Shown: positions 41,038-57,417 of the stretch, in pieces
Position numbering within the stretch: the stretch's first letter is position 1
Layout of the letters: each line of letters begins with the position of its first letter
Assembly: GCA_963816185.1 (NCBI GenBank)
Contig: CAWFJJ010000028.1
Location: 288,001-352,000, forward strand
Origin: Thermoanaerobaculia bacterium
GTDB taxonomy: Bacteria; Acidobacteriota; Thermoanaerobaculia; UBA5066
Direction: 5' to 3'
DNA length: 64,000 nucleotides
Translations under genes and position numbers: made by a program
Notes under the pieces: model-generated
Seen by the model: only the letters and a program-made list of their open reading frames with translations
Told to the model about the DNA's origin: nothing
Database searches by the model: none

Positions 41038-43632
41038 GTGTTTTCCAGCGTGTCGAGGGAAGAGGACCAGCAACCGCTCAATCCGGACGTCCGCGAGGCG
41101 CTCTACGAGCTCCAGCGCTACCTGTCCGACACTTTGGCGCCGCTGATGGTCGCCGATTCCGTCAATCTTCTGCTCGACTATCCCGCCGACCTCGCCGCGA
41201 ACGAGATCCAAGCGTGGACGACCGCGCAATTTCGGAGCGCAAAGCCGGCGCCGGTTTCGGATTACCTTTATCACGCCGTGGAAAAGCTGCACGCGATGGG
41301 GCAGTACCAGCTCGTACCGAAGGACTCGCTTCAGCGGTACCTCGATGACCTCAAGCCCCTCGTCCTCGAGCTGTGTCCGGCCGCGGACCGCACCCTTCTT
41401 GCCCAGAACCTGGGCCGCCTCGGCAACACGGAAAGCGTCTTGTCGGCCCCCGTGGAGTTCCTGAGACGACAAGGCGGGCTCGCGGCCGGAGGCGGCCCCA
41501 CGTCGAGCGGTCTGAGGAGCGAGGACGGGCTTCCGGATACCGCGCCGCACTTGCGCGAGCTTTCATTCCTCATCGAGCGCCTCGGCCCGATGCTCGCGGC
41601 GGGCGCAACGTCCGCCCTCGGCGAGCCGAGCGGGCGCCAGGGCCCGGGCGGGCCGGCTGGATCGCGAGGCGCTGCGGCCGCGGCTGGCGCGGCTCTCGTA
41701 GGGGGGGCGGCGGCGGCCGCACTTCCGGGGGCGAGCGCGGAGCGGCGCGACGTCCTTCTGTCGCAGATTCTCTCGGTCGCGGCGATGGCCGCCCGTACCG
41801 ACGCCGAGCTGCACGCCGCTCTCGACAAGCTCCGGATCATCGGAGTCGACGTCCCGACCGCGGAGATCTTTCGTTCGCTTGGTCGCTCGGTTCCGCCGTG
41901 GTCCGTGTCGGCTCCGTCCGCACCCATCGAGCAGGCTCTCATGGCCGCGAAGAGGGCGCCGACTGCGGCGATGCGCCGTGTCGTCACCCTGCCCGAGAAT
42001 CCCGAGGAGATCGGCCGCCGCTTCAACGAGATGATCGCGGCCGCCATCGAGCAGCTCAATCAAGGCTCACTCCCTCGGGCGGCGCGGATGTTCGCCGTCG
42101 CCGAGAAGCTCGTCGCCGAGAGGCGGGTCGATCCCCGGATGACCGAGAGCGCGCGTCTCAGGGGGAAGGAAAGGGTGGACCTCGAGCGCGTCCGCTCGCT
42201 CGGAGAGGATTCCCGGAATCACGAGCCCCTCGCCCGGATCCTGTCGTTCTTCCCCGACCTGACGGCGATGAAGCTCATGGACGATCTTCGGGGCGAGGAG
42301 AAGCGCGAGCGCCGGCGCCTGCTGCTCTCCCTTCTCGAAATCCACGGCGCCGAGGCGCGCGCGACGGCGCTCGACCTCCTGGCCCGTCCCGATGAGGGCG
42401 AAACCGCGTACGACTGGCACTTCAAACGCAATCTCCTCTATCTGCTGAGGCGCATTCCACGCGCAACGGAGGAGCCGGCCAGCGCCGAGCTCGACGTCCT
42501 CATCTCGTTCGCCGACCCCTCGCTGCCGCCTGCTCTCGTGAAGGAGGCGATCGCGGGGCTCGGCACCGCGCGGCACGAGAGGTCCGAGGCGGCGCTCGTC
42601 TCGATCGTCCAGGGGCTCGAGTCCATGCTCGCGAAAAAGGCCGACGCTCCCTTCGACGAAGCCGAGCTGGCGCCGCTTCTCGACCGCGCCGTCTCGGCAC
42701 TCGCCCGCTTCGGAAGCGGGACATCGCGACGGGTCGTCGTGGAGCACGGACTGCGCCGAAAAGGAGGGCTCGGGGACGCCCGGGCGCGCCTCACGGAGCT
42801 CGCGGGTCAGGATCTCTCGGACGACCCAGAGCTCGTAGGCGTTCTTCTGAGAGGGCTGAAGGCCGAGCTGCCGTTCAGGGTCTTCGGGCTCACGCTCAAG
42901 AAGCGTGACGACAAGATCGGCCCGATCATCGACGCCCTTTCCTCCACGCCTCTGCCTCAAGTGAAGAGTGCGTTCGAGGAGATCGTGGAGCGTCACCCCG
43001 GCACCGAGTTCGCGAAGGCCGCTGCGCATGCGCTCGCGGCCTTCGCGGCGCCCAAACCCGACGAGAGCGCGCCGGTCGCGAGCCTCTCGGGCGACCTCGC
43101 GATCTTCGAGCTACCCGCTCTTCTCCAGAGCCTCGCGGCCTCGGAGGTGACGGGAACGCTGACGCTCAAGAACTCGTCCAACGCCGTCATGGGACGACTG
43201 CTCCTCGAATCCGGCCGGATCCGGGCCGCCGAGTGCGGAGCCCTTCGCGGTGACGAGGCGTGTTACCAGTTCTTCGAACGCCCGGGCGGCGCGACGTTCG
43301 CCTTCGTCCGGCAGGCGAACCTTGCGCCCCGGACCGGAGACGAGGCGCCGCCCCGCGAAGTCGTGTCGGTCCTCCTCGAGGGAATGCGCCGGTACGACGA
43401 GCTCCAGCGCTGTTCGGCCCTCGCGCCGGATGACGCGGTCTTCAAGCAGACGAGCTCGAAGCCGTCGGCCGAGCCCGAGGAACCCGACGCCGCCTTTCAG
43501 CAGGCAGTCTTCTCGAAGGCGGTTTCAGGCCTCAATTCGCGCGCCATCGAAGGCGCGGTCGCCGCGGACTCGTTCCGAGTCCGGAGGTTGCTCGCGCGCT
43601 GGGTCGAAGACGGGAGCTTGAGGGCGGCCTGA
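41038..43632 (+). CDS. Large helical (HEAT-like) protein with C-terminal DUF4388 domain
   Basis: Intact 864-aa ORF; LSGDL..FELP.LLQ.L....TGTL.L DUF4388 pattern and LLEGMRRYDE; WHFKRNLLYLL repeat-like helix. Confidence 0.7.
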   Translation: MFSSVSREEDQQPLNPDVREALYELQRYLSDTLAPLMVADSVNLLLDYPADLAANEIQAWTTAQFRSAKPAPVSDYLYHAVEKLHAMGQYQLVPKDSLQRYLDDLKPLVLELCPAADRTLLAQNLGRLGNTESVLSAPVEFLRRQGGLAAGGGPTSSGLRSEDGLPDTAPHLRELSFLIERLGPMLAAGATSALGEPSGRQGPGGPAGSRGAAAAAGAALVGGAAAAALPGASAERRDVLLSQILSVAAMAARTDAELHAALDKLRIIGVDVPTAEIFRSLGRSVPPWSVSAPSAPIEQALMAAKRAPTAAMRRVVTLPENPEEIGRRFNEMIAAAIEQLNQGSLPRAARMFAVAEKLVAERRVDPRMTESARLRGKERVDLERVRSLGEDSRNHEPLARILSFFPDLTAMKLMDDLRGEEKRERRRLLLSLLEIHGAEARATALDLLARPDEGETAYDWHFKRNLLYLLRRIPRATEEPASAELDVLISFADPSLPPALVKEAIAGLGTARHERSEAALVSIVQGLESMLAKKADAPFDEAELAPLLDRAVSALARFGSGTSRRVVVEHGLRRKGGLGDARARLTELAGQDLSDDPELVGVLLRGLKAELPFRVFGLTLKKRDDKIGPIIDALSSTPLPQVKSAFEEIVERHPGTEFAKAAAHALAAFAAPKPDESAPVASLSGDLAIFELPALLQSLAASEVTGTLTLKNSSNAVMGRLLLESGRIRAAECGALRGDEACYQFFERPGGATFAFVRQANLAPRTGDEAPPREVVSVLLEGMRRYDELQRCSALAPDDAVFKQTSSKPSAEPEEPDAAFQQAVFSKAVSGLNSRAIEGAVAADSFRVRRLLARWVEDGSLRAA

Positions 43633-43692: not shown

Positions 43693-44832
43693 TTAGTAGT
43701 AGAAGACCTGGAACTGGACGGTGTACTCGTTCGTCGAGGCCACGTTCTTGTTGTCCGGGGCATCCGTCCGCGTGAAGCCGGCCTTGATGTTGAAGTTCGC
43801 GCCGTAGGGGTACCAGCCGAGGCCGCCCTGGTACTTGGTCCGGTTGAGCCCCTTGTTCACGTCGTCCGAGTAACGCTGTTGCTCGTAGCGTATGAACGGC
43901 ATGACCTTGGCCGAGCCGATGTAGACGCCGGCTTCGCCGTAGAGGTCGTCCTGCTTGAGGAGCGCCGCCGTGTTGAACGTGACGCCGCCGTCGTAATGAA
44001 TGTAATCGGCCTGCACCGTGATGCCGTTGCCCGTCCCGACGGGATAGTCGAAGAAGAGGTCGCCGGCGTAGGCGGTGTAATCGCTCTGCGTGTCGTAGCC
44101 CCCGCCGATCGCGAGGATCTTCTTCTTTCCGAAATACGTCCCCGCGTAGAACTGGCCCTTCTCGACGTCGAACACGTCGTACTGGAGGCGCCCGGCGAAC
44201 CGGAACGAGTTCTTCACGCCGGGAGCGCGGAAGCCGGAATAGACGCCCGCGCGGTACTCGAGGTGGTCGTCCGCGAGGTAGCCCTTCGCCTGGAAGCCCG
44301 TGTCACGTCCGACCGAGGACTGCGTCGAGGCGCTCTCCTGGAACGACCAGGTGCCGTAGTCCATCGTGAGGAGGGTCACGGCGCTCGTGTTGCAGTTGCG
44401 GCAGAGCGGAATCAGGATGAGGCCGGCGTCGATCGTGAACTCGTTCGCGATCTTCCAGTCGAGGAACGCGTCCTGGACGATGAAGCCCGTGCCCGGCGCC
44501 TTGCCGCCTGCGCCGCCGGCCACCGTCTGCGTCGACTTGCCGAGGTTCGGGTTGTCGGTCATGAAGAAGAACGTGACGTCCTTCGCGACCTGACCGCCAA
44601 GGAAGAACCTGGCCCGCCGCAGGAACAGGTTCTGCTGGAACCCGGCCGTCTCCCCCGTGGCGTTGGACACGCCGTTCCAGTCGCCCCAGGCCTGCATCAG
44701 GAGTCCGAGCCGGAAGTTGACGGTATCGTTTACCTTGACGATGGCCTGCGCGTTCGCGACTGCCGGTAGCAGCGCGATGAGCAGGGCAAGGGAGACGAGG
44801 GCGAATCGATTCGAAAGAATCTTTGAACGCAC
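43693..44832 (-). CDS. Outer-membrane porin (OprO/OprP-like beta-barrel)
   Basis: Signal peptide ending ANA, FLRRARF..GG, GRDTG, amphipathic strands, C-terminal aromatic QFQVFYY. Confidence 0.8.
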   Translation of the reverse strand: MRSKILSNRFALVSLALLIALLPAVANAQAIVKVNDTVNFRLGLLMQAWGDWNGVSNATGETAGFQQNLFLRRARFFLGGQVAKDVTFFFMTDNPNLGKSTQTVAGGAGGKAPGTGFIVQDAFLDWKIANEFTIDAGLILIPLCRNCNTSAVTLLTMDYGTWSFQESASTQSSVGRDTGFQAKGYLADDHLEYRAGVYSGFRAPGVKNSFRFAGRLQYDVFDVEKGQFYAGTYFGKKKILAIGGGYDTQSDYTAYAGDLFFDYPVGTGNGITVQADYIHYDGGVTFNTAALLKQDDLYGEAGVYIGSAKVMPFIRYEQQRYSDDVNKGLNRTKYQGGLGWYPYGANFNIKAGFTRTDAPDNKNVASTNEYTVQFQVFYY

Positions 44833-44894
44833 ACCTTCCTCCTTAAAGTCAGCACGCCGACGAACGGCACGACAGGAACACATCTGTGCTCAAA

Positions 44895-44924
44895 ATGATA
44901 GACACTCAGCAGAATGCGCGTCAA
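44895..44924 (-). promoter_or_regulatory. Sigma70-type promoter for the porin
   Basis: Minus strand TTGACG-18 nt-TATCAT. Confidence 0.6.
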
Positions 44925-44959
44925 CAGGAATCTCCCGGCCGTGAGTAATGCATCTGCAC

Positions 44960-45077
44960 TAGCGCAGCGGCAGCATTTCGCTTGACATCGAGCGTGAGAG
45001 TGAAAGACTCGCCGCCAGATTTGTTTGAGGTGAACTCAGCTAATGGAGTCCGCTCCGCACGATAGCGCAGCGGCAGC
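44960..45077 (+). repeat. Exact 15-bp direct repeat tagcgcagcggcagc flanking a TTGACA box; candidate operator pair
   Basis: Copies at 44960-44974 and 45063-45077; TTGACA at 44982-44987. Confidence 0.7.
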
Positions 45078-45252
45078 CCGGCTTTACGTGAAGCGGGTGC
45101 CGCCTGCTCGAAGAACCGGGCGCACTCCCCGTCTTGTGCGTTAACGCGGAACAAATTTTCGGATCGAACTGGAAAAGAAGACCCTGAGCGAGATCGTCGT
45201 TGTTTCCCTAGGTCCTGGAATGCCATGAACCGAAAGGAAGGGAGGCTCTAAT

Positions 45253-46524
45253 ATGTCAAGTGCTGCTGGAACTCCGGGGGCTGCTGCCGTGCCACGTGGG
45301 GACGTAGGTTTGAATCGATGGTGGCGCGTGGTGGGCGGGCTCCTGATGAACCTGGCCCTGGGCTCGCTTTACGCCTGGAGCGTCTTCGTCGCGCCCCTGG
45401 AGAAGGAGTTCGGCTGGAAGCGGGCGGACACGTCTGCGGTGTTCACATGGGCCGTCGTCGTCTTTGCCATCGCCTTCATCGTCGCGGGGCGCCTCCAGGA
45501 CAAGCTCGGGCCTTTCATGGTCTCGATCATCGGCTGCATCTTGCTGACGGCAGGCTTCATTCTCTGCATGTGGACGAGCAGCCTCACGTACCTGATCGTC
45601 TGCTTCGGGATTCTCGTCGGCATCGGTAACGGATTCGGCTACGCGACGCCGATTCCGGTCATGTCCAAATGGTTCCCGGACAAGCGCGGCCTGGCCGTCG
45701 GTCTGGCCGTCGCGGGTTACGGCGGCGGTTCGGCCATCTTCGGACCCCTGGCGAACCTGTGGCTGATCCCGGCCTACGGCTGGCGGGCCACATTCGCCAT
45801 CCTCGGCGTCATTTTCTTCTTCATGACCCTCGTCGGAGCTTTACTGCTGAAGAACCCTCCGGCCGGATACCAGGTGCCGGGCTGGGTGCCCGCTTCAAAA
45901 CCGAAGTCCCTGGCGACAACCTACGAGTTCACTCCCGGGGAAATGTGGCGCACCCCGGCGGCGTACTTCATGTGGATCGCCTACTGCCTGGGCTGCGCTG
46001 CCGGCCTCATGGTCATCAGCCAGCTGATCCCGTTCGCCAAGAGCGAGGGGATTCCCGGCGCAGCTCTTCCCGTCATCGGGCTCGTCATAGGCGCGGCCGG
46101 GAACGCCTCCGGTCGAATCCTGTCGGGCTGGATGTCGGATGCCATGGGACGTCTCAATGTCCTGCGTCTGATGATCGCGATCTCGGCCATCTCCATGCCG
46201 ATCCTCTACCTCACCGGAAGCAACGTCGCGATGCTCTACGTGATGGTCTTCATCGTCTACTGGTGCTACGGCACGCAGCTCTCGGTGAACGCCTCGACGA
46301 CGGCCGACTTCTGGGGCACGAAGAACGTCGGCATCAACTACGGCATTCTGTTCACCGCCTGGGGTGTCGCAGGCTTCATCGGACCCCGGATCGGCGGCGT
46401 GCTCTTCGACAAGTACAAGAACTACCAGGCAGCCTTCTACACCGCGGCCGCCCTGGCGGTAGTCGCGCTCATCTGCGAGTTCCTGGCGAAGAAGCCGAAC
46501 CCGCCCGTGGGGGCGCACGCTTAG
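45253..46524 (+). CDS. OFA-family MFS transporter (YhjX/monocarboxylate-like)
   Basis: GSLYAWSVF, WFPDKRGLA.G, GYGGGS, NASGRI, NYGILFTAWG. Confidence 0.88.
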   Translation: MSSAAGTPGAAAVPRGDVGLNRWWRVVGGLLMNLALGSLYAWSVFVAPLEKEFGWKRADTSAVFTWAVVVFAIAFIVAGRLQDKLGPFMVSIIGCILLTAGFILCMWTSSLTYLIVCFGILVGIGNGFGYATPIPVMSKWFPDKRGLAVGLAVAGYGGGSAIFGPLANLWLIPAYGWRATFAILGVIFFFMTLVGALLLKNPPAGYQVPGWVPASKPKSLATTYEFTPGEMWRTPAAYFMWIAYCLGCAAGLMVISQLIPFAKSEGIPGAALPVIGLVIGAAGNASGRILSGWMSDAMGRLNVLRLMIAISAISMPILYLTGSNVAMLYVMVFIVYWCYGTQLSVNASTTADFWGTKNVGINYGILFTAWGVAGFIGPRIGGVLFDKYKNYQAAFYTAAALAVVALICEFLAKKPNPPVGAHA

Positions 46525-46580
46525 GGGGCCGGCGCGGGTCTTGACACCGAAACTCTTTCGACAACGGACAGGAGAAGAGA

Positions 46581-47996
46581 ATGGCTGACAGCACGTTTCC
46601 CAAACACAAGGTCCTGCCTTGGCCGGCGGTTCCGATCCCGACCCCCGACGAGGTGTACGCGGGTCTTACGGATCAGGCCAAGGAATATCCCCTCTCACTC
46701 GAGAAGCAGCTCAGACAGAGCGAGAACTTCAAGAAGCCCGAGAACCTGACGACGGTGCGGGTCCTCGACCTGAGCAAGGGGATGATCATCGGCAACTGGT
46801 GTTCCTCGATGCTCTCGGAGCTCGGCTCGGACACCATCAAGTGCGAGCCGCCCGACGGCGACCCCTTGCGGTGGCAGACGCCGTTCGGACGCAAGGAGTA
46901 CATGATCAAGGATGCCGAGACCGGCGAGCCGATCGGCCTGCACTTCCTCCACGAGATGAGGAACAAACAGTCGATCACGCTCAATCTCGAGAAGCCGGAG
47001 GGACGCGAGCTCCTCAAGAAGCTCGCCGTCCACTGCGATGTCCTCATCGAGAACTACCCGCCGGGGCAGTTCGACGCATGGGGGATCGGCTATCGGCAGC
47101 TGAAGGAGATCAACCCGCGACTCGTCTACTGCTGGGTGGGGCAGAAGGGCCAGTGGGGCCCGTCGAAAGACAAGCCGGGGAACCTGGACCCGACCGCTCA
47201 GGCGGCGTGCGGATTCATACACGGCACCGGCCTCCCGAAGGAGTTCGGCGGACGGCCCACGCGCTCGGCCATGTGGATGGCGGACCAGGTCGGCGGGACG
47301 TCGGCGGCCATCGGGATTCTCGCCGCGCTCCTTTATCGCGACAAGGTCTCGGGTAAGGGTCAGTTCATCGAGGCGACGGCGGCCGAGGCCATCATCCGGA
47401 TCCTGGACTACAACTGGGGCTGGTACGGGTTCGACGGGAGCATCCGCCCCCGCTACGGGAACTGGGACCTCGCGATCAACATCTACGCCGTCAACCCGTG
47501 CAAGGACGGGTACTTCATGGTGGGCGGCGGACACGATCGCCTCTGGTACCGGATCTGGCGGACGGTGGGGCAGTCACGTCCCGACCTCGAGGACGAGATT
47601 CTCGACGACAAGAGCCTCCGGGTCGTCACGGCGCGGCTTCCGCACCTGAAGCAGGTGAAAACCTACACGGTTCTCGCCGACTGGCAGAAGGACCATTCCC
47701 GGGCGGACGCCATGCACCAGCTCCTCGCCCAGCAGGTCGCGTCCGGCGGCGTCAACTACGTCGACGAGGTGGCCGAAGACCCGCATTTCAAGTACCGCGG
47801 ACACGTCGACGAGTTCGACGATCGGCTCTACGGAAAAGTCCTCTACGGCACGTCGCCCTTGCTCGAGGACAAGGCTCCCGCGCGCCTGAAGTGGATCGGC
47901 CGGCCCTTGGGATACGACAACGAAGAGATTTATCTGAAGCTCCTCGGGCTTGGTCCGGCCGAGGTTGCCGCGCTCAAGAAGCGCGGAGTGGTTTAG
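46581..47996 (+). CDS. Family III (CaiB/BaiF) CoA-transferase, subunit 1
   Basis: VRVLDLS, KCEPP.GD.LR, RNKQSITLNL, DVLIENY.PG, INPRLVY, ADQVGG, GKGQFI. Confidence 0.88.
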   Translation: MADSTFPKHKVLPWPAVPIPTPDEVYAGLTDQAKEYPLSLEKQLRQSENFKKPENLTTVRVLDLSKGMIIGNWCSSMLSELGSDTIKCEPPDGDPLRWQTPFGRKEYMIKDAETGEPIGLHFLHEMRNKQSITLNLEKPEGRELLKKLAVHCDVLIENYPPGQFDAWGIGYRQLKEINPRLVYCWVGQKGQWGPSKDKPGNLDPTAQAACGFIHGTGLPKEFGGRPTRSAMWMADQVGGTSAAIGILAALLYRDKVSGKGQFIEATAAEAIIRILDYNWGWYGFDGSIRPRYGNWDLAINIYAVNPCKDGYFMVGGGHDRLWYRIWRTVGQSRPDLEDEILDDKSLRVVTARLPHLKQVKTYTVLADWQKDHSRADAMHQLLAQQVASGGVNYVDEVAEDPHFKYRGHVDEFDDRLYGKVLYGTSPLLEDKAPARLKWIGRPLGYDNEEIYLKLLGLGPAEVAALKKRGVV

Positions 47997-48015
47997 GTCA
48001 GAGGAGGCAGCGAAG

Positions 48016-49361
48016 ATGGCCACACCCGATTTCGAAACCTACTGTCAGCAGCTCTTCGACCACAAGACGGCTGCCGGAAAGCCTGAGGTCCTGAAGGGCT
48101 ATCGCGTTCTTTCCTGCACGCAGTACATCCTTGGTCCTTCCACCGCGGCGTATCTGGCCGAACTGGGAGCCGAGGTCATCAAGATCGAGACGCCGCGGCG
48201 CGGCGAGCCGATGCGTCACACGACCCCGTTCAACGAGCCCCTCCTCTACCCTCTCTCCCGCTGGGTGCCGGAGGCGGGGACGGGCCTGGGCTTCTTCGGC
48301 GCCAACGACAACGAGGAGTTCGTCAGCCTCGACTTCCACCGGCCGGAGGCGAGGCAGGCCATGCTGGAGCTGGCGGCCAAGTCGGACGTCATGGTCCAGA
48401 ACTTCCGGCCCGGAACATTCGACCGGTGGGGAATGGGCTATCAGCACTTTTCCAAGGTCAACCCCCGCCTCGTCTATCAGTGGCTGGGCGGGTTCGGCGG
48501 CTGGGGGCCCGGACGCGTGCGCGCCTCGTACGACATCCTGGGCCAGGCCATGGGCGGCGCCTTCGGGATCACTGGCGAAGCCGCTGACCGGGGCGGGACG
48601 CCGTCCAAGCACACGATCTGGCTGGCCGACTACTGGGGCGGCATGATGGCTGCGGTCGCGATCCTGGCGGCTCTCTATCGTCGGGACACGGTTTCAGGCG
48701 AGGGGTGCTTCATCGAGTACTCGCAGGTTCACGGCGTCACGCGGCAGCTCGAGTACGCTCTTCCGCTCTACGGGCGGTACGGCATCCGGCGTGAGCGCTG
48801 GGGCAACTGGGACACCGAGCTCTGCGCACACGGGATCGTCCAGTGCGGCAAGTCGTCCTATCCGGGCTCCAAGAACCCGCAGGAAGCCGAGGTGGGGTAC
48901 ATCCTCGTCACGGCCCACACGGACGAGGACTTCAAGAAGCTGTGCGACGTGATCGGGCCGGAAGGACCTTGCCGACGTCACTCGGGAAACACGACGACCG
49001 CGTCAAGGCCGAGAATCAGGGCACCGTCTACGATGCCATCGAGGCCTGGGCGAAGGACAAGAGCAAGGAAGACGTGGCGAACCTTCTCGACAAGGCCGGC
49101 ATCAACAACCAGCCGGTGTGGAACGCGAAGGAGGTCTCCGAGCACCCTCACTGGAAGCTCCGCGGCGCGGTCCAGTGGATCGACGATCCGATCTTCGGCG
49201 ATCTGCACCATCAGGGTCCCGCCTTCATGATGTCCGAGACGCCTCCGCGCCTGAAGTGGGCGCTGAAGCCCGTGGGCGCCGACAACGAGCGGGTCTACGG
49301 ACGGCTCCTCGGGTGGACGAAATCGAAGCTCGCGAAGATGGAAGAGATGGAGGTGATCTGA
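48016..49361 (+). CDS. Family III CoA-transferase, subunit 2 (one frameshift near 48960)
   Basis: LKGYRVL, LGP, LGAEVIKIE, DVMVQNFRPG, NPRLVY, SYD, ADYWGG, MSETP. Confidence 0.88.
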
Positions 49362-49362
49362 G

Positions 49363-49785
49363 ATGGCCAGCGAGACGACCTCCGGCGTCATCAAACAGGG
49401 TCTGGTGCTCACGTGCGCCAAGTGCTCCACCAAGAACTTCCTCGACCCGTATCCGTTCTGGAACTTCAGCGGCAACACGAAATGTGCCGGCTGCGACGCC
49501 ATCTACGCCGTTAAGTTCGTCAAGGGCCAGCAGGAGAGCGGGCCGACGGCCACCTCCGGGAAAGCGGATCTTCTTCCGGGCTACGCCGAAGACAAGAACG
49601 GCGCCGCCATCACCGGGGAAGGAAAGATCCGCCCCGCCCCGCAGGCGCGGCCCGATCCCTTCACCGGGCAGCAGAAGCAGATCACGAAGAGCCTCCGGGG
49701 CAAGCCGGTCAGCGGCAGCCGTCTCAAGAAGGAAGATCTCGTGGGAAGCCGGCCCAAGTTCATCGTGGACTTGCGCAAGAGCTGA
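49363..49785 (+). CDS. Hypothetical zinc-ribbon-like protein (140 aa)
   Basis: GGAGG RBS, 1 nt after the previous stop; CAKC...CAGC pair. Confidence 0.75.
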   Translation: MASETTSGVIKQGLVLTCAKCSTKNFLDPYPFWNFSGNTKCAGCDAIYAVKFVKGQQESGPTATSGKADLLPGYAEDKNGAAITGEGKIRPAPQARPDPFTGQQKQITKSLRGKPVSGSRLKKEDLVGSRPKFIVDLRKS

Positions 49786-49801
49786 AGAAGGAGAAAAAGC
49801 C

Positions 49802-49996
49802 GTGGCACAGACCGAGAAGAAAAAGGAAACGTCGACTTACAAGTGCTGCGAGCACTTCGAGGCCGCGCTGGATCCGAACATCCTGAGGGCGTACGTCGGC
49901 TACTGCAAGGCGCGCGCATGGCCCTTCACGGTGATGGTCCCCATCGGCGGCCTGGAGGGTGAGTGTCCGAAGCCCCCGATCAAGAAGAAGGCCTAA
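49802..49996 (+). CDS. Small hypothetical Cys-rich protein (64 aa)
   Basis: AAGGAG RBS then GTG; VAQTEKKKETSTYKCCEHFEAALDPNILRAYVGYCKARAWPFTVMVPIGGLEGECPKPPIKKKA; coding-like codon use. Confidence 0.7.
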   Translation: MAQTEKKKETSTYKCCEHFEAALDPNILRAYVGYCKARAWPFTVMVPIGGLEGECPKPPIKKKA

Positions 49997-50013
49997 GACG
50001 GCCGGGAACAGGC

Positions 50014-50346
50014 ATGGCGAGCCTCCGAGAGGAGTTCGAGCAGCGGTACGGACGGCTCTGGTCCGGCGCGTCGTCACTCGAAATCGGGGGCGTCACCTAC
50101 GAGCTTGAAGAGGTGATGCACAAGATCGGCTTCGGCTTCGAGGGGCTCAAGCTCATCGACGCCCCTCGGGTCGAAGCCGGCCGCGCCGCCATCCGTTTCT
50201 TCGACGGCGAGGTTCGCTGCATCGTGTGCCTCGAGCTGGGGGAGGATCTTACGATTCTGGAAGAGCATCGCGTCCACATCGCCGAGTGGCTTGGGGATGC
50301 CTACTTCGAGACGGAATGGCAGGTGAACTGCCCCATGGATTTCTGA
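50014..50346 (+). CDS. Small acidic hypothetical protein (110 aa)
   Basis: MASLREEFEQRYG...HRVHIAEWLGDAYF...CPMDF; tight operon spacing. Confidence 0.7.
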   Translation: MASLREEFEQRYGRLWSGASSLEIGGVTYELEEVMHKIGFGFEGLKLIDAPRVEAGRAAIRFFDGEVRCIVCLELGEDLTILEEHRVHIAEWLGDAYFETEWQVNCPMDF

Positions 50347-50357
50347 GAGGAGACACC

Positions 50358-50783
50358 ATGAAAGTCAAGTTCTACTACTCCAGCAAGGACAAGCCGGGCG
50401 AGCAGTACCCGTGCAACATCGCGGCCTGCCTCGAGAAGGTCAAGAAATTGAAGGCGCAGGGATACGACGTCGAGGCGATCGACGTCGCCGGTGTGGCGGA
50501 TGTGTTCCGCTTCTACCATTCGGCCCTGACCGGTCCGCCCGCGACCGTCCGCGCCGTCTTCGGCATGAAGGGAGCGCTCGAGGCCGACTTCGGCCGTACG
50601 ACGCCCGCCGTCCTCGCCTTCGGCGATCCGAAGGACCGCTACCCGACCGACGCCTACCCGCGGCAGGATCAGGGCAGGGGCGGACTCGTCGGATGCGAGA
50701 AGGCTCTCGACGACCTCGCCAAGGAGCTCGCCAAGCTGCCGGCGACCGAGGACGAAGAGGAGGAGCAGGAGGCGAGTCGTTGA
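50358..50783 (+). CDS. Hypothetical protein (141 aa), possibly thioredoxin-like fold
   Basis: GAGGAG RBS; beta-alpha-beta N-terminus, TPAVL segment, three Cys, acidic tail; stop overlaps the ligase TTG. Confidence 0.7.
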   Translation: MKVKFYYSSKDKPGEQYPCNIAACLEKVKKLKAQGYDVEAIDVAGVADVFRFYHSALTGPPATVRAVFGMKGALEADFGRTTPAVLAFGDPKDRYPTDAYPRQDQGRGGLVGCEKALDDLAKELAKLPATEDEEEEQEASR

Positions 50784-52447
50784 GCACGATCCCCGCGGAT
50801 TACCTGCCCCCGAAGGAATATCAGCCCCAGCGGATCTACAAGCTCGAGGAGTTCGCGACCTATCCCGATCCGCTGAACAGCACCGAGGAGCTGCTCGACA
50901 AGCAGGTCGCGGCGGGGAGGGGCGACAGCCGCGCGATCCTCTTCGGTGACAAGATCATCACGTATAAGCAGCTCCTGGGGGCTGCCTGCAAGATCGGCAA
51001 TGCCCTCAGGAAGCTCGGCGTCGAGGAAGCGGACCGGGTCATGCTCCGGTCGCCGAACGTTCCGCCCGCCCTCTTCACGAACTTCGGCGTCCTGAGGCTC
51101 GGAGCCGTGATGGTCCCGACCTCGCACATGCTCTCTCCGAACGAGATCGCGCACATCGCGAACAACGCCGAGGCGAAAGTGATCATCGTGGCGGCGGCCT
51201 TCCTCGAGGGGGTCGTCAAGGCCCGGGCGAATCTCAAGACGGTCAAGCATGTCATCGTCTTCGGCGGGAACCCGGAGGAGCTGAAGACGCAGGGGCTGCT
51301 CTCCTACGAAGAGCTCGTCGCGAACGAGTCGCCGGCGCTCGAACCCGTTCGCCGTCCGCGCACCGCCGTCTCCGTCCTCCTCTATACGTCTGGAACGACG
51401 GGGATGCCCAAGGGAACGGCGCACTTCATGGAAGAGGCGCTGATCGTCCCGGACACCATGGGAAAGCACGGATGGAACGTGCAGCCCGAGGACATCCTCT
51501 GCGGCCCGGCCCCCATCTCGTTGGCCGGCGGGTACTCGACGGTGGCGACGATTCCCTTCAGGTTCGGCGCCGCGGCCTCCCTGATCCCGAAGTTCACCCC
51601 AGACGGGCTCTTCGAGCTGATCCAGAGCCACAAGGTGACGATCCTGAGCGCTCTCCCCACGGCGTATCGGAAGATGCTCGAGGTTTCGGGCGCCGAGAAG
51701 AAGTACGACCTGTCGAGCCTCCGCGTTCTGACGGGCGGCGGCGAATCGCTGACCGCAAAGACGTATCTGGATTGGAAAGCCCGCTTCGGCCAGGAGATCT
51801 ACGAGGGCCTCGGAACGACGGAGATGATGTACGTCTTCGTCTCCAGCGTCGTCACCCGCAAGGTGAAGCCGGGCGCGATCGGCACCGCGGTCCCCGGATA
51901 CGAGATCCAGGTCATAACGGAAGATGGCAAGGTCGCGAAGCCGGGAGAGCTGGGAAGGCTCTATGCACGCGGTCCCACGGGACCCCTTTACTGGCGTCCC
52001 CTCGAGGAGGGCGGAAGTCTTCTCGAGAAGCAAAAATCGCTCATCCGCGAAGGCTGGGCCCTGGTCGGCGACTTCTGCACGATGGACGAGGAGGGATACC
52101 TCAGCTTCGTCTCCCGCCAGGAGGATCTGATCAAGAGCTCCGGCTACCGCATCGGACCCGAGGAGATCGAGGATGCGCTCCTCAAACACCCCGCCGTGGC
52201 GGACGCGGGCGTGATCGGGATCCCGGATCCTGTCCGGGGACAGAACGTCAAGGCCGCCGTCATCCTGCGGCCCGGCTACACGCCGAGCGAGGAGCTGAAG
52301 CAGAAGCTCATCGACAGCTGTCGGGACCACATCGCGATTTACAAGCTGCCGCGCATCGTGGAGTTCGTCACGGAGCTGCCGCGAACGCTGCAGGGAAAGC
52401 TCCTTCGGCGGGTCCTGCGAGACAAGGAGGTCGTCGCCACGAGATAG
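50780..52447 (+). CDS. AMP-forming acyl-CoA ligase (benzoate/2-aminobenzoate-CoA ligase-like)
   Basis: YLPP..YP..LN..ELLD N-terminus, YTSGTTGMPKG, EGLGTTE, GD, IKSSGYRIGP.EIE, LPRT..GKL.R. Confidence 0.88.
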   Translation: MSTIPADYLPPKEYQPQRIYKLEEFATYPDPLNSTEELLDKQVAAGRGDSRAILFGDKIITYKQLLGAACKIGNALRKLGVEEADRVMLRSPNVPPALFTNFGVLRLGAVMVPTSHMLSPNEIAHIANNAEAKVIIVAAAFLEGVVKARANLKTVKHVIVFGGNPEELKTQGLLSYEELVANESPALEPVRRPRTAVSVLLYTSGTTGMPKGTAHFMEEALIVPDTMGKHGWNVQPEDILCGPAPISLAGGYSTVATIPFRFGAAASLIPKFTPDGLFELIQSHKVTILSALPTAYRKMLEVSGAEKKYDLSSLRVLTGGGESLTAKTYLDWKARFGQEIYEGLGTTEMMYVFVSSVVTRKVKPGAIGTAVPGYEIQVITEDGKVAKPGELGRLYARGPTGPLYWRPLEEGGSLLEKQKSLIREGWALVGDFCTMDEEGYLSFVSRQEDLIKSSGYRIGPEEIEDALLKHPAVADAGVIGIPDPVRGQNVKAAVILRPGYTPSEELKQKLIDSCRDHIAIYKLPRIVEFVTELPRTLQGKLLRRVLRDKEVVATR

Positions 52448-52502: not shown

Positions 52503-52913
52503 TCAGGCCGTGACCTTCTCGGGCAGGAGTCGTTGCAGAGTGTCGAGCAGATCGCTGACGGCGAAAGGCTTTGCAATATAGCCATCAGGCGGGGGCACGA
52601 TCTTGCGGTGGTGGATGAACTCCTTGAACTCCGGCTGAATGCCCGTGATCATCACGATGGGGATGCCCGCGAGTTGCAGGATCGTCACGTATCTCCCGAT
52701 AGACGCGAACGCCCGTGGGATCCGGCATCACGATGTCGAGGCAGATCAGATCCGGCAGATGCCGGCGTGCAAGAGCGAGTCCCTCTGTTCCGTCCGTCGC
52801 GCACAGAGGCTCGTACCCGTTGTCGCGCAGGATCGCTCTCCAGGTAGGTGACCACATCGAGATCGTCGTCTATGACGAGCACCTTTTTCGCGGGACTGTT
52901 GCGTGGTCATCAT
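52503..52913 (-). CDS. Single-domain response regulator (frameshifted)
   Basis: VLVIDDD, PDLICLDIVMP, IPIVMITG, YIAKP. Confidence 0.82.
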
Positions 52914-52951
52914 TGCCTCCCTTTGGTAAGGTCTCTGTTCCCCTTGCCGTC

Positions 52952-53501
52952 TCACCGCTTCTGTACCCTTTCCTGGCTCGCCCGCAGGCCTTCGAGGAGA
53001 CCCGCCAGGGTTTCCTCGTCCGCGCCGCGCAGAGCGGACTCCAGCTCCTTGCGCAGCTTGCCGGCGCGGTCCTCTTGTACGGGACCGGCGCCAAGCGCCA
53101 CGCCCAGAACGAGAGAGATCTGCTCCAGATAGTGCTGCGGCGTCACGGGCTTCTCGAGATACACGGAGGGTCCCGAGATCGAGCTGTCCTTCAGGACGTC
53201 GGCGAGATCCCTTTTGACCGCTTCGTCGCGGGCGTGGCCGGAGACGATGATGACGGGGATCCGCGACCACTCGGGGTGTTTGCGCAGCTCATGAAGAAGG
53301 CGGATGCCCGACTTGCCCGGCATGACCAGGTCCAGAGAGATGAGGTCGGGAGGGGCCTGGCGGATTCGGTCGAGCGCCTGGGCCCCGTCGTGAGCGGTGA
53401 CCACGTGCATGCCCGGCGTCCTCGAGGACCGTCCCGAGAAATGTGGTGATGTCGGGCTCGTCGTCGACGACGAGGACGGTGACGTCTTCGGGCTGGCGCA
53501 T
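52952..53501 (-). CDS. Response regulator receiver with short C-terminal extension (frameshifted)
   Basis: VLVVDDEPD, PDLISLDLVMPGKSG, IPVIIVSG, YLEKP. Confidence 0.82.
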
Positions 53502-53504
53502 GGC

Positions 53505-55378
53505 TCATTCCTCCGAAAGGGGAGAGCCGGGTGACGCGGCACGGTCCTGGCTTGGGCCGGGCGCCTCACGCGGCGAGCCGTCCTCCGGGCTTTCCAGCCG
53601 AGGCAATCTCTTTCGCGGGAAGCGGAGGCGGAAGACCGTCCCCGGCCGGACGTCGAGTCGAAGGTCACCGAGCCGCCGTGCTGCTGCACGATCTTGCGCG
53701 TCAGAAGGAGCCCCAGACCGGTCCCCCGGCTCCTTTGGTCGTGAAGAAGCTCGTGAACGCCTTCTGCTTCACTTCGTAGTCCATGCCGCACCCCGTGTCG
53801 ATCACCTCGAAGGTGATCACCTCGTTCTCCTCCACGAGTCGGACGGTGATGGAGCACGAGGGGGTGTGGCTCACGAGGCAGGCATCGATGGCGTTCGAGA
53901 TCAGGTTCGAGAGGCACGTGTGCAGCCCCTCGGCGTCCAGGGGCGCCGGTCGAACCTCCTCGGCGATCTCGGCCTTGATCGTGATGCCATGCTGCTCGGC
54001 GGCGTCGCGGAACAGGCCGACCACGTCGTGCACGATCGTCGCCGGTGAGACGAGCGCGACCCGCGGCTGCTCGCCGCGAGAGAACGCCAGGAGGCTTCGT
54101 ACCAAAGTCGAGATGCGGCCGACGTTTCGCTCGAGCATCTCCCATCCCTTTCGCACGCGGTCCTGTTCGCCCTTCTGGACGCCGACGGACGCGACGTACA
54201 TCCCGCCTTCGAGCCCGGTGAGGATGTTCTTGATGCCGTGAGCCAGCCCCGCGACGGTCTCACCCACCGCCGCGAGACGTTCCGCCTCGAGCTTCTCGCG
54301 CTGGAGCTGCCTCACTTCTCGAAGATCCTGAAACGTGAAAGCCGAACCGACCAAACGCCCCTCATGGCGCAATCGGACCCCGGCGAGCCGCACCGGGACG
54401 TCCTCGCCGGCGGCCGTCGTCACCTCGGTCTCCTGCAACACACCCGGGTCGTGCTCATCGCGGATGGGGCGCAGGAGGGCCTTCGGGACGAGGCCGGGCG
54501 GAGCCTTCCGGCCCAGCAGCTGCTTTCGTGCGTAGCCGAGAAGCGCCTCGGCCGCGCCGTTGAAGAGCTTGACGCAGCCGTGATTGTCGAGGACGACGAT
54601 GGCGTCCAGGGCGTGCTCGACGAGGGCCTCGCGCAGCATGTGGGCATGGCTCAGCTCCGGCCTCCAGGTGGCGGATCTCGGTCATGTCGAGCGCCATCTG
54701 GATGACGTGCGTCGTGTCTCCGTCCGCGTTCGGCACCGGGGCGGTGGAGACCACGTAGTGCATCGGCTCTCCCGCAGAGGTCACTCCCACCTCGCTTGCG
54801 GTGTGAATCCGGCCGTCCCGGAAGGTCTCCTCGGCGGGACAGTCGTCACATCGCTCGCGGCGTTGCTTGAACAACGCGTAGCAGTGCTCTCCTTTGGCGT
54901 CGCCGAAGGCGCGGCGGGACATCTCGTTGGACTTGACGACCCTCAGGTCGCGGTTGAGCACCGACACGTAGCACGGCACCTTCTCGAAGAGCGTCTGGTA
55001 CTCGCCCTGCAGCCTCTTGGAGGACGTGATGTCCGTGGTGGAGACCGCGACGAACGAGACCGGGCCGCCCGTCTCGAGGACGGGCGTGACCTGCACGAGA
55101 TAGTTCGCGGGCCGCCCGCCCCGGTCGCGGCCCGTCTGCTCCAGCACCCGAACCTGGGCGTCCGCGAACGTCTTCTCGACCGGGCAGCTCGGGCACGGAG
55201 CCGCGCGGTGTCGGGTCGCGGCGAAGCAAGGCCTGCCGCGCGCTTCGCCGAAGATCTCCGCAAAAGCGCCGTTGTGATCGACGATGTGAAGCGAACGGTC
55301 GATGACCGCGATCCCCGACGGGATCTCCTCGAAGAGCGCCGCCCGGCGCGCGCTGTCCCACGCGGCGGCGCGGCTCAT
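53505..55378 (-). CDS. Cytoplasmic triple-PAS sensor histidine kinase (frameshifted)
   Basis: Three PAS repeats, H-box LAHGIKN, NLISNAIDA, DTGCGM, FFTTKG, GTGLGL. Confidence 0.85.
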
Positions 55379-57417
55379 ATCCCAGGACCTCCGCCGACCC
55401 GACCCTCCCGCAGCCGGAGATCCTCGCCCAGGGACGAGGCGTCGCGATGGCAATTGGGACACCGGCTGAGAGTGAATTGGGTCACGGCGTTCTTCTGCTC
55501 GTGCTCGCGGTGACACGAAATGCACAGCCCGTGCATGGCGGCGCGATAGCCTGGGGCGACGCCCGGCTGCAGTCCGTCGCGCGTCTTCACCTGGAACCGT
55601 GCCGTCCGGCTCACGTCGCGGGCGTGACAGTCGTCGCAAGGTTTGGCCGCAGCGCGGGTCTTGGGCTCCTTCGGGCGACGATGGCAGCTTTCGCACGAGC
55701 CGTTGCGGCCGAGGGCGACGGACGTGCCGTTCGTGGTAGAACGTGTCCGTCGGCGGCGTAGAGGTCGCCGATGGCAGGCCGCGCACGACGTGGCGCGATC
55801 GACGCGGTAGATTGCGATGGTGGCACAGGACGCACGCAGGCAGCCGACTCCGCCGAGCCGCTGCTGGTGCGCCGTCGTGCTCGAAGAGGACGTACCGTCC
55901 CGGGCTCCGCGCCCCTCCGAGGAGCAACGCGGCGCTCCATCGCGGCCCGGCGCGGGGCGTCGCCGAGGCTCGGCGTGCGAAGAGCAGGTGAGAACGAGCC
56001 GATGGCCACCGGGCGTGCTTCCGGGACTCGGAGCGCGAAGGACCGCCTCCGCGCGAGGACGCTGCACCGGGCTCGGGCGCGAAGGCGAGCGCGACGGGCG
56101 ATCTCGCGCCTGCACGTGAGGCCGAGCGCCGAGAAGCGCCCCGACGGCGCAGGCCAGCGCGGAGCGCCGCGCACGCGTCCCAGCCAGGGCGCCCGCGTGA
56201 CGGACAGCGACGGAGACCGGGTCGATGAGACGCGGGGCGGAAGTGGTCGAGACCGGGGCCGGCGGCGACTCCCAGACGCGGAGGTGCTCGACGAAGAAGA
56301 GGAACACGAGCGCCATCGCGGCCACGACGCCGAGGCTGATCGGCGAGCTCGGTGAGGGCCGGAACGTAGGCGTCGCCCGCCGTCGCGGCGATGTGAGAGG
56401 TTCCGCCGGCGTCGGCCCGATAGAGGACGAAGCCGGCGACCGACCGAGGACCGCGCCCGGCGCCGAGGGCGCTGCCGGTCGGTTCGCCGGACGCTGGGCA
56501 GCGTGAAGAGGAGGAGGCGGGCCCACGGTGCTCGAAGAGCCAGCTCGAAGAGGAAGAGTCCACGCGGTCAGCCAGGAGCCCTGGAGAGCACGGCGCAGCT
56601 GGCCGCGCGCGCGCGAGGTCGCCGAGCCGCAGAACGCAGATAGACGCGCGAGCACGAGGCGCGGCGGCGCGGGTCGAGGCCCTGCAGAGGAGGTCCCACT
56701 CCGGCTCCCGGTGGAAAAGCCACGACGCTCGCGAGGCTCTCGACGGTCACCATGGAGAGGCCGAGGGCCACGGCCGAGACCAGGAAGAGCAGCGGAAGGA
56801 GCGGGGAGTACCAGAGAGGGTGGAGGCGGTGCGGGGCGATGACGAGGAGCGTCCCGAGCGAGGATTGGTGGAGGGTCGACAGCGCGATGCCGGCGATCGA
56901 CGAGAGGGCAGGGTGAAGCGGCGCAGGAACGTTGAACGACCTTGTTCGCAGGCGGAAGCCCTTCGAAGACCACGGGGGCGAACTCCAGCGCGAGCACGGT
57001 GAGATAGAGCATCACGCACCAGGCCACCTCGAAGAGCGCGGAGTGCGGCTGCCAGAAGAGCGTCGGGCGCCAGATGTTCCACGGGCTGGCCGAGATCGAC
57101 CAGCAGGCCGAGGACGACGGCGACATAGCCGAGGAACGCCGTCAGGACGGCGGGCCGCAGCAGGGCGCGGTAACGCTCGAGGTGGAAGACGTGGACGGCG
57201 GCCGGCGATCGACGAACCCGCCCGCGGCGAGGGCGACGCCGGCGAGGACGTCGAAGCCGATCCACAGGCCCCACGGGGTCCGGTCGCTGAGCGACCGTCG
57301 TCAGATCCGAGACCCAGGCAGGTAATCGGACGACGGCGACGGCGCCGGCGACGCCGACGAGCAGCCAGAGGACGATCTTCGTGACGGCCAGCCGGGACGC
57401 TCGGTCGGCTCGCTCAC
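55375..57417 (-). CDS. NrfD/HybB (HmcC-like) membrane subunit with C-terminal multiheme cytochrome c3-like domain (heavily frameshifted)
   Basis: PWGLWIGFD, LRPAVLTAFLGY, SALFEVAWCVMLY, LSTLHQSSLG, LHPLWYS; then CVLCH, CAACH, CESCH, CDDCH, CISCH, CPNCH. Confidence 0.75.

Follow-up and report, generated by a model that had tools for sequence, protein, structure and literature searches.

Coupling of an acyl-CoA ligase to a CoA-transferase ('CoA cycling') is a recurring and cheap route by which anaerobes transform organic acids, and the underlying logic, priming followed by recycling, has been established in the Cai, Bai and Fld/Had systems. To our knowledge, the described cases all use recognisable partner enzymes. 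As in Cai/Bai/Fld/Had-type operons, a transporter, a ligase of the priming type and family III CoA-transferases stand together in one operon at positions 43693-52447 of the DNA analysed here (that is, the window: 64,000 nucleotides of contig CAWFJJ010000028.1, positions 288,001 to 352,000, from a Thermoanaerobaculia bacterium, assembly GCA_963816185.1), and this operon also encodes four small proteins, O1-O4. On the basis of the families of the transporter, transferases and ligase, a conserved aspartate, the tight coupling of the genes and their co-conservation, we tentatively suggest that the operon is a carboxylate uptake and CoA-cycling activation machine with new accessory subunits and a six-gene core (the transferase paralogs CoAT1 and CoAT2, O1, O2, O4 and the ligase).

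Analysis of open reading frames (ORFs) places a porin gene on the minus strand and eight co-oriented, tightly packed genes diverging from it (basis of each assignment in brackets):

43693-44883, minus strand: outer-membrane porin, divergent from the operon (ExtI porin model, below cut-off; no Pfam match)
44884-45252, no strand: divergent intergenic region, presumed promoter or regulatory region (read from the sequence)
45253-46524, plus strand: major facilitator superfamily (MFS) monocarboxylate transporter, SfMCT or oxalate-formate-antiporter type (MFS_1, NF049980)
46581-47996, plus strand: CoAT1, family III CoA-transferase paralog of 471 amino acids (CoA_transf_3)
48016-49361, plus strand: CoAT2, second family III CoA-transferase paralog, in two frames in the assembly (CoA_transf_3)
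49363-49785, plus strand: O1, 140 amino acids, predicted N-terminal CxxC...CxxC zinc ribbon and a long tail (no family)
49802-49996, plus strand: O2, 64 amino acids, GTG start (no family)
50014-50346, plus strand: O3, 110 amino acids, lineage-specific insert into the operon (no family)
50358-50783, plus strand: O4, 141 amino acids, predicted thioredoxin-like fold and an acidic tail (no family)
50780-52447, plus strand: AMP-forming acyl-CoA ligase, medium-chain or aryl type, TTG start (AMP-binding and AMP-binding_C)

From the MFS gene to the ligase gene the gaps are 56, 19, 1, 16, 17, 11 and -4 bp, so that CoAT2 and O1 are separated by 1 nt and the ligase start overlaps the O4 stop by 4 nt, and most starts are preceded by purine-rich stretches that resemble ribosome-binding sites. 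The gene layout given in the initial annotation, which was made from the sequence by a model (coordinates, eight co-oriented genes, sites resembling ribosome-binding sites and a divergent porin), is thus borne out by the ORFs. All operon genes are kept in order in eight related genomes at 77-98% protein identity, and the core is also kept across phyla; these are real genes and not chance ORFs.

The evidence across phyla comes from a scan of one genome per species, in which 173 genomes encode an O4 relative; the best 80 O4-seeded loci, all from metagenome-assembled genomes, were kept for the counts given here. These loci span at least eight phylum-level lineages and are titled as Acidobacteriota (Thermoanaerobaculia and Terriglobia), Actinomycetota, Chloroflexota (Ardenticatenales), Methylomirabilota/Rokubacteria, 'Deltaproteobacteria'/Deferrimicrobiaceae, Anaeromyxobacteraceae, Gemmatimonadota and Armatimonadota. 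The complete six-gene core (CoAT1, CoAT2, O1, O2, O4 and the ligase) occurs in 58 of the 80, and in all 58 the genes stand in the same order on one strand. Taken singly, the ligase was detected in 78 loci, O1 in 77 and O2 in 76, and 72 have a CoAT2 ortholog; most of the misses lie off contig ends. The initial annotation had tied its reading to co-conservation of its orphan genes with the transferases, and this is what was found for O1, O2 and O4, which, being kept beside both transferases and the ligase across many phyla, probably belong with them to one undescribed enzyme system. Nor did our database and literature searches match the orphans to a described pathway, family or structure; full-text searching, judged from the beginnings of abstracts, returned no account of such a cluster. 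The transferases are 60-77% and the ligase 51-65% identical between phyla, yet the system is rare (O4 is found in 9 of 41 relatives, this genome included, and the O1 profile matches 4 of 301 evenly drawn Acidobacteriota genomes), and this combination of rarity and high identity points to a core that may have spread horizontally as a unit.

The fourth small protein does not share this distribution. O3 lies between O2 and O4 in only 20 of the 80 loci, all in the Thermoanaerobaculia-like group (L021-L041, three loci of which are titled as other taxa), and an O3-like gene occurs some kilobases off the core in 35 other loci, in Terriglobia typically within a module that encodes a PAS protein, an alpha/beta hydrolase, a 79-amino-acid protein and O3. 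Of the four orphans originally counted, O1, O2 and O4 therefore stand as the conserved core, and O3 is an operon member only in this lineage.

Turning to the larger proteins, the MFS carrier matches Pfam MFS_1 (E 1.8e-45) and passes the NCBIfam model NF049980 for the SfMCT L-lactate transporter (392 bits, cut-off 320); it scores below cut-off against the models for the oxalate-formate-antiporter (OFA) family (237 bits, cut-off 375) and for bile-salt MFS carriers (65 bits, cut-off 400). This profile suggests that the cargo may be a lactate-like monocarboxylate. A canonical oxalate route was considered and is unlikely: nothing in this genome reaches the cut-off for oxalyl-CoA decarboxylase (best 176.8 against 739.4 bits).

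CoAT1 matches CoA_transf_3 at E 5e-83 (279.7 bits, cut-off 23.3) and bears an N-terminal extension of about 55 amino acids, and the two parts of CoAT2 match the same model with 233.3 bits (N-terminal part, model positions 1-260) and 46.1 bits (C-terminal part, 273-366). None of the named family III transferases represented by NCBIfam equivalog models comes near its cut-off for either paralog, the best scores being 162/750 bits for formyl-CoA, 148/442 for succinate-glutarate, 148/700 for succinyl-CoA:mesaconate, 91/522 for oxalate and, for CoAT1 against the carnitine model (CaiB), 84.7/413. The closest solved relative of CoAT1 is a formyl-CoA transferase (E 1.5e-37), followed by SUGCT and the subunits of the heteromeric benzylsuccinate CoA-transferase BbsEF (3.9e-26 and 9.6e-26), all at modest E-values. 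The Asp of 'WMADQVGG' in CoAT1 aligns with an Asp of the solved formyl-CoA transferase, is kept in both paralogs and is D in 114 of 116 CoAT1/CoAT2-family sequences; we take it to be the active-site residue that forms the acyl-aspartyl anhydride.

The superfamily also includes racemases, and an inversion route of ligase, alpha-methylacyl-CoA racemase and thioesterase is known for 2-arylpropionates, which raises the question of whether the ligase, a racemase-type family III paralog and a thioesterase could here invert 2-hydroxy-, 2-halo- or 2-methyl-acids. Structures of MCR match CoAT1 at E 7e-18, a thioesterase accompanies the core in 26 of the 80 loci, and 12 of the 31 Terriglobia loci carry a type II haloacid dehalogenase (234 bits, cut-off 125). 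However, both paralogs score far better against transferases than against racemases (for CoAT1, 1.5e-37 against 7e-18), and at the presumed position of the racemase Gly-His-Asp with its catalytic His-Asp pair, CoAT1 has 'GNLD' and CoAT2 'SYD', neither with a His (the position was placed without a racemase alignment). We consider such a stereoinversion module the least probable of the alternatives discussed here.

The ligase matches AMP-binding (E 4.7e-72, 243.3 bits) and AMP-binding_C (78.5 bits), and K540, which lies in the C-terminal 'TLQGK' ('GK' motif), is invariant in 13 orthologs and is presumably the C-terminal catalytic lysine. It falls below all NCBIfam subfamily cut-offs (acetate- 349/476, benzoate- 324/729, long-chain- 294/375 and malonyl-CoA 246/558 bits), its closest solved relatives being anthranilate-CoA ligase (2.8e-79) and acetyl-CoA synthetase (1.2e-74), then benzoate-CoA ligases, with medium-chain synthetases also near.

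From these families we infer the following sequence of events. The substrate would be a small organic acid, in all likelihood a short monocarboxylate resembling lactate or another 2-substituted acid, which would pass the outer membrane through the porin and the inner one through the SfMCT-type MFS carrier. In a priming step, the AMP-forming ligase would make the first acyl-CoA at the cost of ATP. CoAT1 and CoAT2, probably as an interlocked heterodimer, would then transfer the CoA of the product thioester to new substrate molecules, so that not every turn costs ATP. O1 would serve as a non-enzymatic or accessory subunit (that is, a clamp or adaptor) on this specific transferase pair, and O2-O4, combining a Cys-bearing and a thioredoxin-like domain, would form an accessory unit that sits on the ligase or bridges both enzymes. 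The chemistry on the CoA ester itself might fall mainly to linked, lineage-specific enzymes such as a thioesterase, alpha/beta hydrolases, a crotonase, U32 proteins and Amidohydro_2.

The small proteins themselves offer some guidance as to these roles. None of O1-O4 belongs to a Pfam or NCBIfam family, O1 showing a faint zinc-ribbon match only, and profiles of O1, O3 and O2-O4 found nothing below E 0.1 among PDB sequences. All of 21 O1 sequences have C41 and C44, at least 90% have C18 and C21, and 16 of the 21 weakly match the zinc-ribbon Pfam model Zn_ribbon_FGT1_1 at E<=1 (best 5e-05); judged by these residues, O1 is a putative conserved zinc ribbon with two CxxC knuckles. The full set of invariant residues is N25, D28, P29, F32, F35, G37, C41, A42, C44, P72, G73, A75, R112, G113, L121 and L126, and the tail carries the conserved linear motifs LPGxAE and RGxxxSGxPL...L.GS. 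Matches of O1 in the ESM Atlas comprised 'hypothetical' clusters and, at 0.91, a cluster with OapC in 12% of its members, which was dropped as generic zinc-ribbon likeness; no O1 relative was found on plasmids.

O2 has the invariant residues A22, P25, I27, Y31, G33, P41, P47 and C55, and an N-terminal Cys is general. O2 and O4 act together, given that they share one open frame in 34 of the 80 loci and that fused O2-O4 proteins are seen directly (P0123, P0124, P0131, P0133 and P0139). A separate database protein of 240 amino acids, P0127, joins about 54 CoAT1-like N-terminal residues to the C-terminal half of O2 and to O4, and is probably a deletion or assembly chimera. A complex prediction of the ligase with O2 and O4 (ipSAE 0.00 and 0.00, mark 0.32) gave no verdict either way.

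O4 is represented by only 57 clusters among 1.84 billion representative proteins. Its AlphaFold2 (AF2) model (pLDDT 86.6) finds mostly thioredoxin-fold proteins among the top rows of a VIA-align search (Z 6.7, rmsd 3.0, 83 residues aligned), and thioredoxins also lead in Foldseek (best E 0.05); these middling scores favour a predicted thioredoxin-like fold. Across 19 family members there is no conserved Cys column and no CxxC or CxxS, and Y53 and P101 are invariant; in a closer alignment D42, R65, K71, R102 and D104 are invariant and R80 nearly so, R65, K71, R80 and R102 marking a conserved basic loop. A member-wise Pfam scan gave a sub-threshold C-terminal likeness to HTH_63 in 4 of 19 distant members.

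O3 has 159 detectable homologs, all 'hypothetical', and a paralog in this genome at C28:374147-374494. Its AF2 model (pLDDT 86.8) has no convincing fold match (Foldseek best E 0.12, VIA-align best Z 4.8), the ESM Atlas held nothing usable for it and member-wise scans gave no Pfam match. G18, I48, D49, R61, D64, V71, E84 and W92 are invariant, H88 and E91 nearly so, and there is no conserved Cys. Cys content, by which all four orphans were described, is accordingly a conserved property of O1 and partly of O2, but not of O3 or O4.

Two loci help to divide the core. In L090 and L098, O2-O4 and the ligase are kept at 64-66% identity, identity of the two transferases to CoAT1 and CoAT2 falls to 28-37%, and O1 is absent although no contig end could account for its loss. 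Because these loci lose O1 where the transferases diverge and keep O2-O4 with the ligase, O1 appears to be tied to the specific transferase pair and O2-O4 to the ligase, a pairing consistent with the spacing of the genes, CoAT2 and O1 being 1 nt apart and O4 and the ligase overlapping by 4 nt.

The same two loci bear on a system like that of citrate lyase or malonate decarboxylase, in which a small protein (for example, O2 through Cys55) would carry an acyl thioester, charged by the 'ligase', and the transferase paralogs would shuttle acyl groups between the carrier and the free acid. The combination of a transferase, an AMP-forming ligase and small subunits resembles citrate lyase (alpha, beta and gamma subunits with CitC), O2 has an invariant Cys, and O2-O4 accompany the ligase even where the transferases have been exchanged. 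Yet no prosthetic-group genes of the CitG/CitX or MdcB/MdcG type are seen in the annotated loci, family III transferases are known to work with free CoA esters, and the ligase keeps CoA-ligase features and has true CoA ligases as its closest solved relatives. A carrier-protein system is therefore, in our judgement, very improbable.

A distant O4-family branch with the motif DVYPH is represented by 80 metagenome loci (L105-L184); in none of them does the O4-like gene lie beside a transferase, although L118 has a distant ligase match (34% identity, other strand) about 6 kb off at the locus edge. Nine of these 80 loci carry a PIN-domain gene, mostly directly downstream, and some carry BrxA/BrxB, a cytosine methylase or a transposase; the branch may thus belong to a toxin-antitoxin or defence-island context.

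Such unrelated contexts would suit small proteins that are regulators or assembly factors and not stoichiometric subunits, gating the enzymes (by redox state, metal or acyl-CoA) or aiding assembly of the heterodimer. Thioredoxin-like and zinc-ribbon domains are common in regulators and chaperones, and a linked region of this genome (described below) encodes protein acetylation and deacetylation (a GNAT-ACD fusion and two Hist_deacetyl genes), so that the pathway may be regulated post-translationally. However, the fixed order and near-overlapping genes across phyla suggest equimolar co-production, O4 has no conserved redox Cys, and regulators are seldom so strictly syntenic over such distances, which together make a role purely in regulation or assembly improbable.

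The identity of the enzyme that would act on the CoA ester is the point at which our reading and that of the initial annotation part. No CoA-ester-transforming enzyme is recognised by Pfam or NCBIfam between 45253 and 52447, and to this extent the earlier statement holds; it does not extend to the surroundings, as relatives carry thioesterase and hydrolase genes beside the core and this genome carries them 20-39 kb downstream. Among close relatives, seven loci have ABC-transporter genes immediately after the ligase, five have a FlK-type thioesterase in the vicinity and four an alpha/beta hydrolase, and a divergent ADP-forming acyl-CoA synthetase is also present. In Terriglobia the core belongs to a cluster of as many as 18 genes, all co-oriented, in which it is preceded by three U32 genes, a small protein and Amidohydro_2 and followed by a PAS protein, two alpha/beta hydrolases, the 79-amino-acid protein, O3, the type II haloacid dehalogenase, a further O3 and a FlK-type thioesterase. 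Methylomirabilota and similar unclassified loci carry IclR and three U32 genes, and Delta/Deferrimicrobiaceae loci carry YbgC-type thioesterases, one U32 gene and a 465-amino-acid protein of no recognised family. Among the 80 loci one hydrolase family is found in 28, PAS in 29 and U32 in 14, counts that, like that of the thioesterases, are lower bounds owing to the way in which ORFs were picked.

In this genome the families attached to the core in Terriglobia lie further down the contig, 20-39 kb past the ligase: a FlK-like thioesterase, hydrolases, a crotonase, three U32 genes, Amidohydro_2 and PAS, together with ADP-forming acyl-CoA synthetases (one of them the GNAT-ACD fusion), the two Hist_deacetyl genes, the O3 paralog and the 79-amino-acid protein. 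This linked accessory region (C28:360675-379734, 8.7-27.7 kb past the window end; L101 and L102) also encodes MarR and CBS proteins. Given that the linked enzymes vary by lineage and sit nearby in this genome, the core is best understood as a module for activation, to which different lineages couple different downstream enzymes.

Two of the neighbouring families deserve separate mention. The three tandem peptidase-U32-family genes that recur beside the core in Terriglobia and Methylomirabilota (for example, L048:1526-4581 and L097:13099-16018) have their best NCBIfam likeness, below cut-off, to TrhP and UbiU. The 465-amino-acid protein (L081:4546-5943 and relatives; cluster c24, 8 of 80 loci) is soluble and has no Pfam or NCBIfam match; it lies directly upstream of the core in Delta/Deferrimicrobiaceae and Gemmatimonadota loci, mostly after an O3-like gene; in Methylomirabilota loci it is close by, on the opposite strand.

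The initial annotation proposed instead that the small proteins supply the missing catalysis, that is, that O1 and O2-O4 (with O3 in this lineage), alone or on the transferase pair, are an undescribed enzyme for the absent CoA-ester step (for example, isomerisation, hydration or dehydration, decarboxylation, or substitution at C2) and complete a self-contained pathway. We consider this possible but doubtful. The lack of a recognised CoA-ester enzyme in the window operon would fit it, no known family of O1-O4 contradicts it, and three loci in which the core is accompanied by a transporter only (L046 and L052 of Chloroflexota, L042 of Actinomycetota), with one in which it has no recognised accessory family (L074 of Armatimonadota), keep the idea alive. 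On the other hand, the small proteins show no fold or motif of a known enzyme class: O4 resembles thioredoxins but lacks the active-site Cys, and the putative zinc ribbon and motif-bearing tail of O1 read more as those of a clamp or adaptor. In addition, O3 stands outside the conserved core, and close relatives have genes for a thioesterase and a hydrolase after the ligase, as this genome has elsewhere. Nothing found in this analysis shows the small proteins to be catalytic and, as O3 and O4 have no conserved catalytic-looking Cys and the thioredoxin-like O4 has no CxxC, we prefer to regard O1 and O2-O4 as candidate accessory subunits. A related conjecture, to which we give a similarly low probability, is that O1 and O2-O4 form a new CoA-ester-handling complex on a heteromeric family III transferase, performing undescribed catalysis on a short 2-substituted acyl-CoA or working as a ligase-charged acyl carrier, the whole module having spread horizontally among uncultured soil and groundwater bacteria of many phyla.

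Several observations weigh against a CoA-cycling machine with accessory subunits and should be set beside the evidence for it. The variation of the accessory enzymes among lineages, together with the four bare-core loci, would fit a self-sufficient core with catalytic small proteins, and the strictly conserved polar residues of O1, O3 and O4 (among them D49, R61, D64 and E84 of O3, and D42, R65, K71, R102 and D104 of O4), like C55 of O2, would also suit active sites. A search for longer forms of O1 or O4, among them fusions to a transferase or the ligase, found none, although this is weak evidence. The lactate-type substrate is suggested by a single transporter model. Moreover, Terriglobia account for 31 of the 80 loci and the Thermoanaerobaculia-like group for 21, and related genomes are not independent. 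The overall interpretation in the initial annotation thus survives in part: O1, O2 and O4 are co-conserved and the orphans match nothing described, but the four become three plus one, a catalytic role is not supported, and the absence of a CoA-ester enzyme is true of the window operon alone.

As annotated, CoAT2 is split into two frames (48016-~48966 and 48969-49361), with the frame change near 48954-48975. The window has two extra bases within a stretch of about 20 nt, near 48954/48961 and 48973/48975, both of which are missing in four of four aligned relatives, and the contigs of all three public DNA runs that cover the place omit them (X1 and X2 at both sites, X3 at the one site covered); the gene is a single frame in eight of eight relatives examined. 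Given that the extra bases are missing in relatives and in public-run contigs, the break is probably an assembly error and the gene intact in nature. A programmed -1 frameshift was also considered, because the heptamer G GGA AAC (48984-48990) lies in the right frame just past the break; as the two upstream bases are missing in relatives and read-derived contigs, this was rejected and the heptamer judged a coincidence. Contigs of the RNA run X15 on CoAT2, mostly at 90-99% identity, come from relatives and may include DNA, and were not counted as evidence of expression. At 52585-56563 and 60937-61985 of the window, several more genes appear to be broken up into neighbouring pieces, namely response-regulator and histidine-kinase fragments and a sigma-54 activator split into ORFs of 174 and 159 amino acids; together with the CoAT2 indels, these genes suggest residual single-base errors throughout the assembly.

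The porin on the other side of the intergenic region has a likely signal peptide after an internal start and matches the NCBIfam ExtI model at E 2.3e-30 with 105.7 bits, below the cut-off of 150, which makes it a relative and not a member of that family. It is kept in the same divergent position in four relatives at 80-86% identity. Rfam gave no match at gathering score, and signals in promoter and terminator scans did not rise above those of shuffled sequence; the sole sigma-70-like site of the scan in 44884-45252 faces the porin and is likewise not above shuffles, and no sigma-54-like site was found there. Just upstream of the porin, at 41038-43632, lies a gene for an 864-amino-acid protein with a C-terminal DUF4388, kept in four relatives at 73-82% identity.

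Three families that have no Pfam, NCBIfam or solved relative are thus locked between two transferases and a ligase, in the same order, in at least eight phylum-level lineages, and their carriers are abundant, uncultured bacteria of soil, peat and groundwater. Such conservation marks a functional unit that current annotation misses, and its six proteins offer a concrete target for expression. Should the small ones indeed be subunits or catalysts, they would represent new families and, probably, a route for short organic acids in soils that is new as well. The logic of a ligase with a family III transferase is already known and it is the three conserved extra subunits that are new, in that we found no family, structure or paper for them; that they define something new in kind we regard as unlikely.

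Comparison with described systems places the operon as follows. Citrate lyase and malonate decarboxylase share its parts list (that is, an acyl transferase, one or more small non-enzymatic subunits and an activating ligase), but use family I/II-type transferases and an acyl carrier protein whose CoA-like prosthetic group is made by dedicated genes. The 2-hydroxyacyl-CoA dehydratase systems (FldA/HadA) likewise have a priming ligase and tie a family III transferase, both physically and genetically, to further subunits, and the lactate-type transporter suggests that the class of 2-hydroxy-acid substrates may be shared as well; neither a dehydratase of the HgdAB/FldBC type nor an ATP-dependent activator is seen in the window operon or the annotated accessory families. 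BbsEF provides a precedent for two adjacent family III paralogs, from which a heteromer is to be expected, and CoAT1 matches its subunits at the E-values given above, a similarity no closer than that to formyl-CoA transferases; Bbs clusters, however, contain beta-oxidation enzymes for the CoA ester and are not known to include a ligase or small orphan subunits. The Bai operon for bile-acid 7-alpha-dehydroxylation has a similar co-oriented set comprising an MFS carrier (BaiG), a ligase (BaiB), two transferases (BaiF and BaiK) and small proteins (BaiE and BaiI). The latter are SnoaL/NTF2-type enzymes of known families, whereas O1-O4 have no family and the fold match of O3 to such proteins is not convincing; the operon here also has no oxidoreductases, and its carrier is far from the bile-salt MFS model (65 against 400 bits). 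The carnitine (Cai) operon of Escherichia coli (CaiT-CaiB-CaiC) differs in having one homodimeric transferase, recognisable CoA-ester enzymes (CaiA and CaiD) and no known zinc-ribbon or thioredoxin-like small subunits, and CoAT1 scores far below the CaiB model (84.7 bits, cut-off 413). What it shares is the plan that we tentatively propose for the present locus: a transporter, a family III transferase and a priming AMP-forming ligase encoded in one operon, with the substrate handled as its CoA ester and CoA recycled by transfer.

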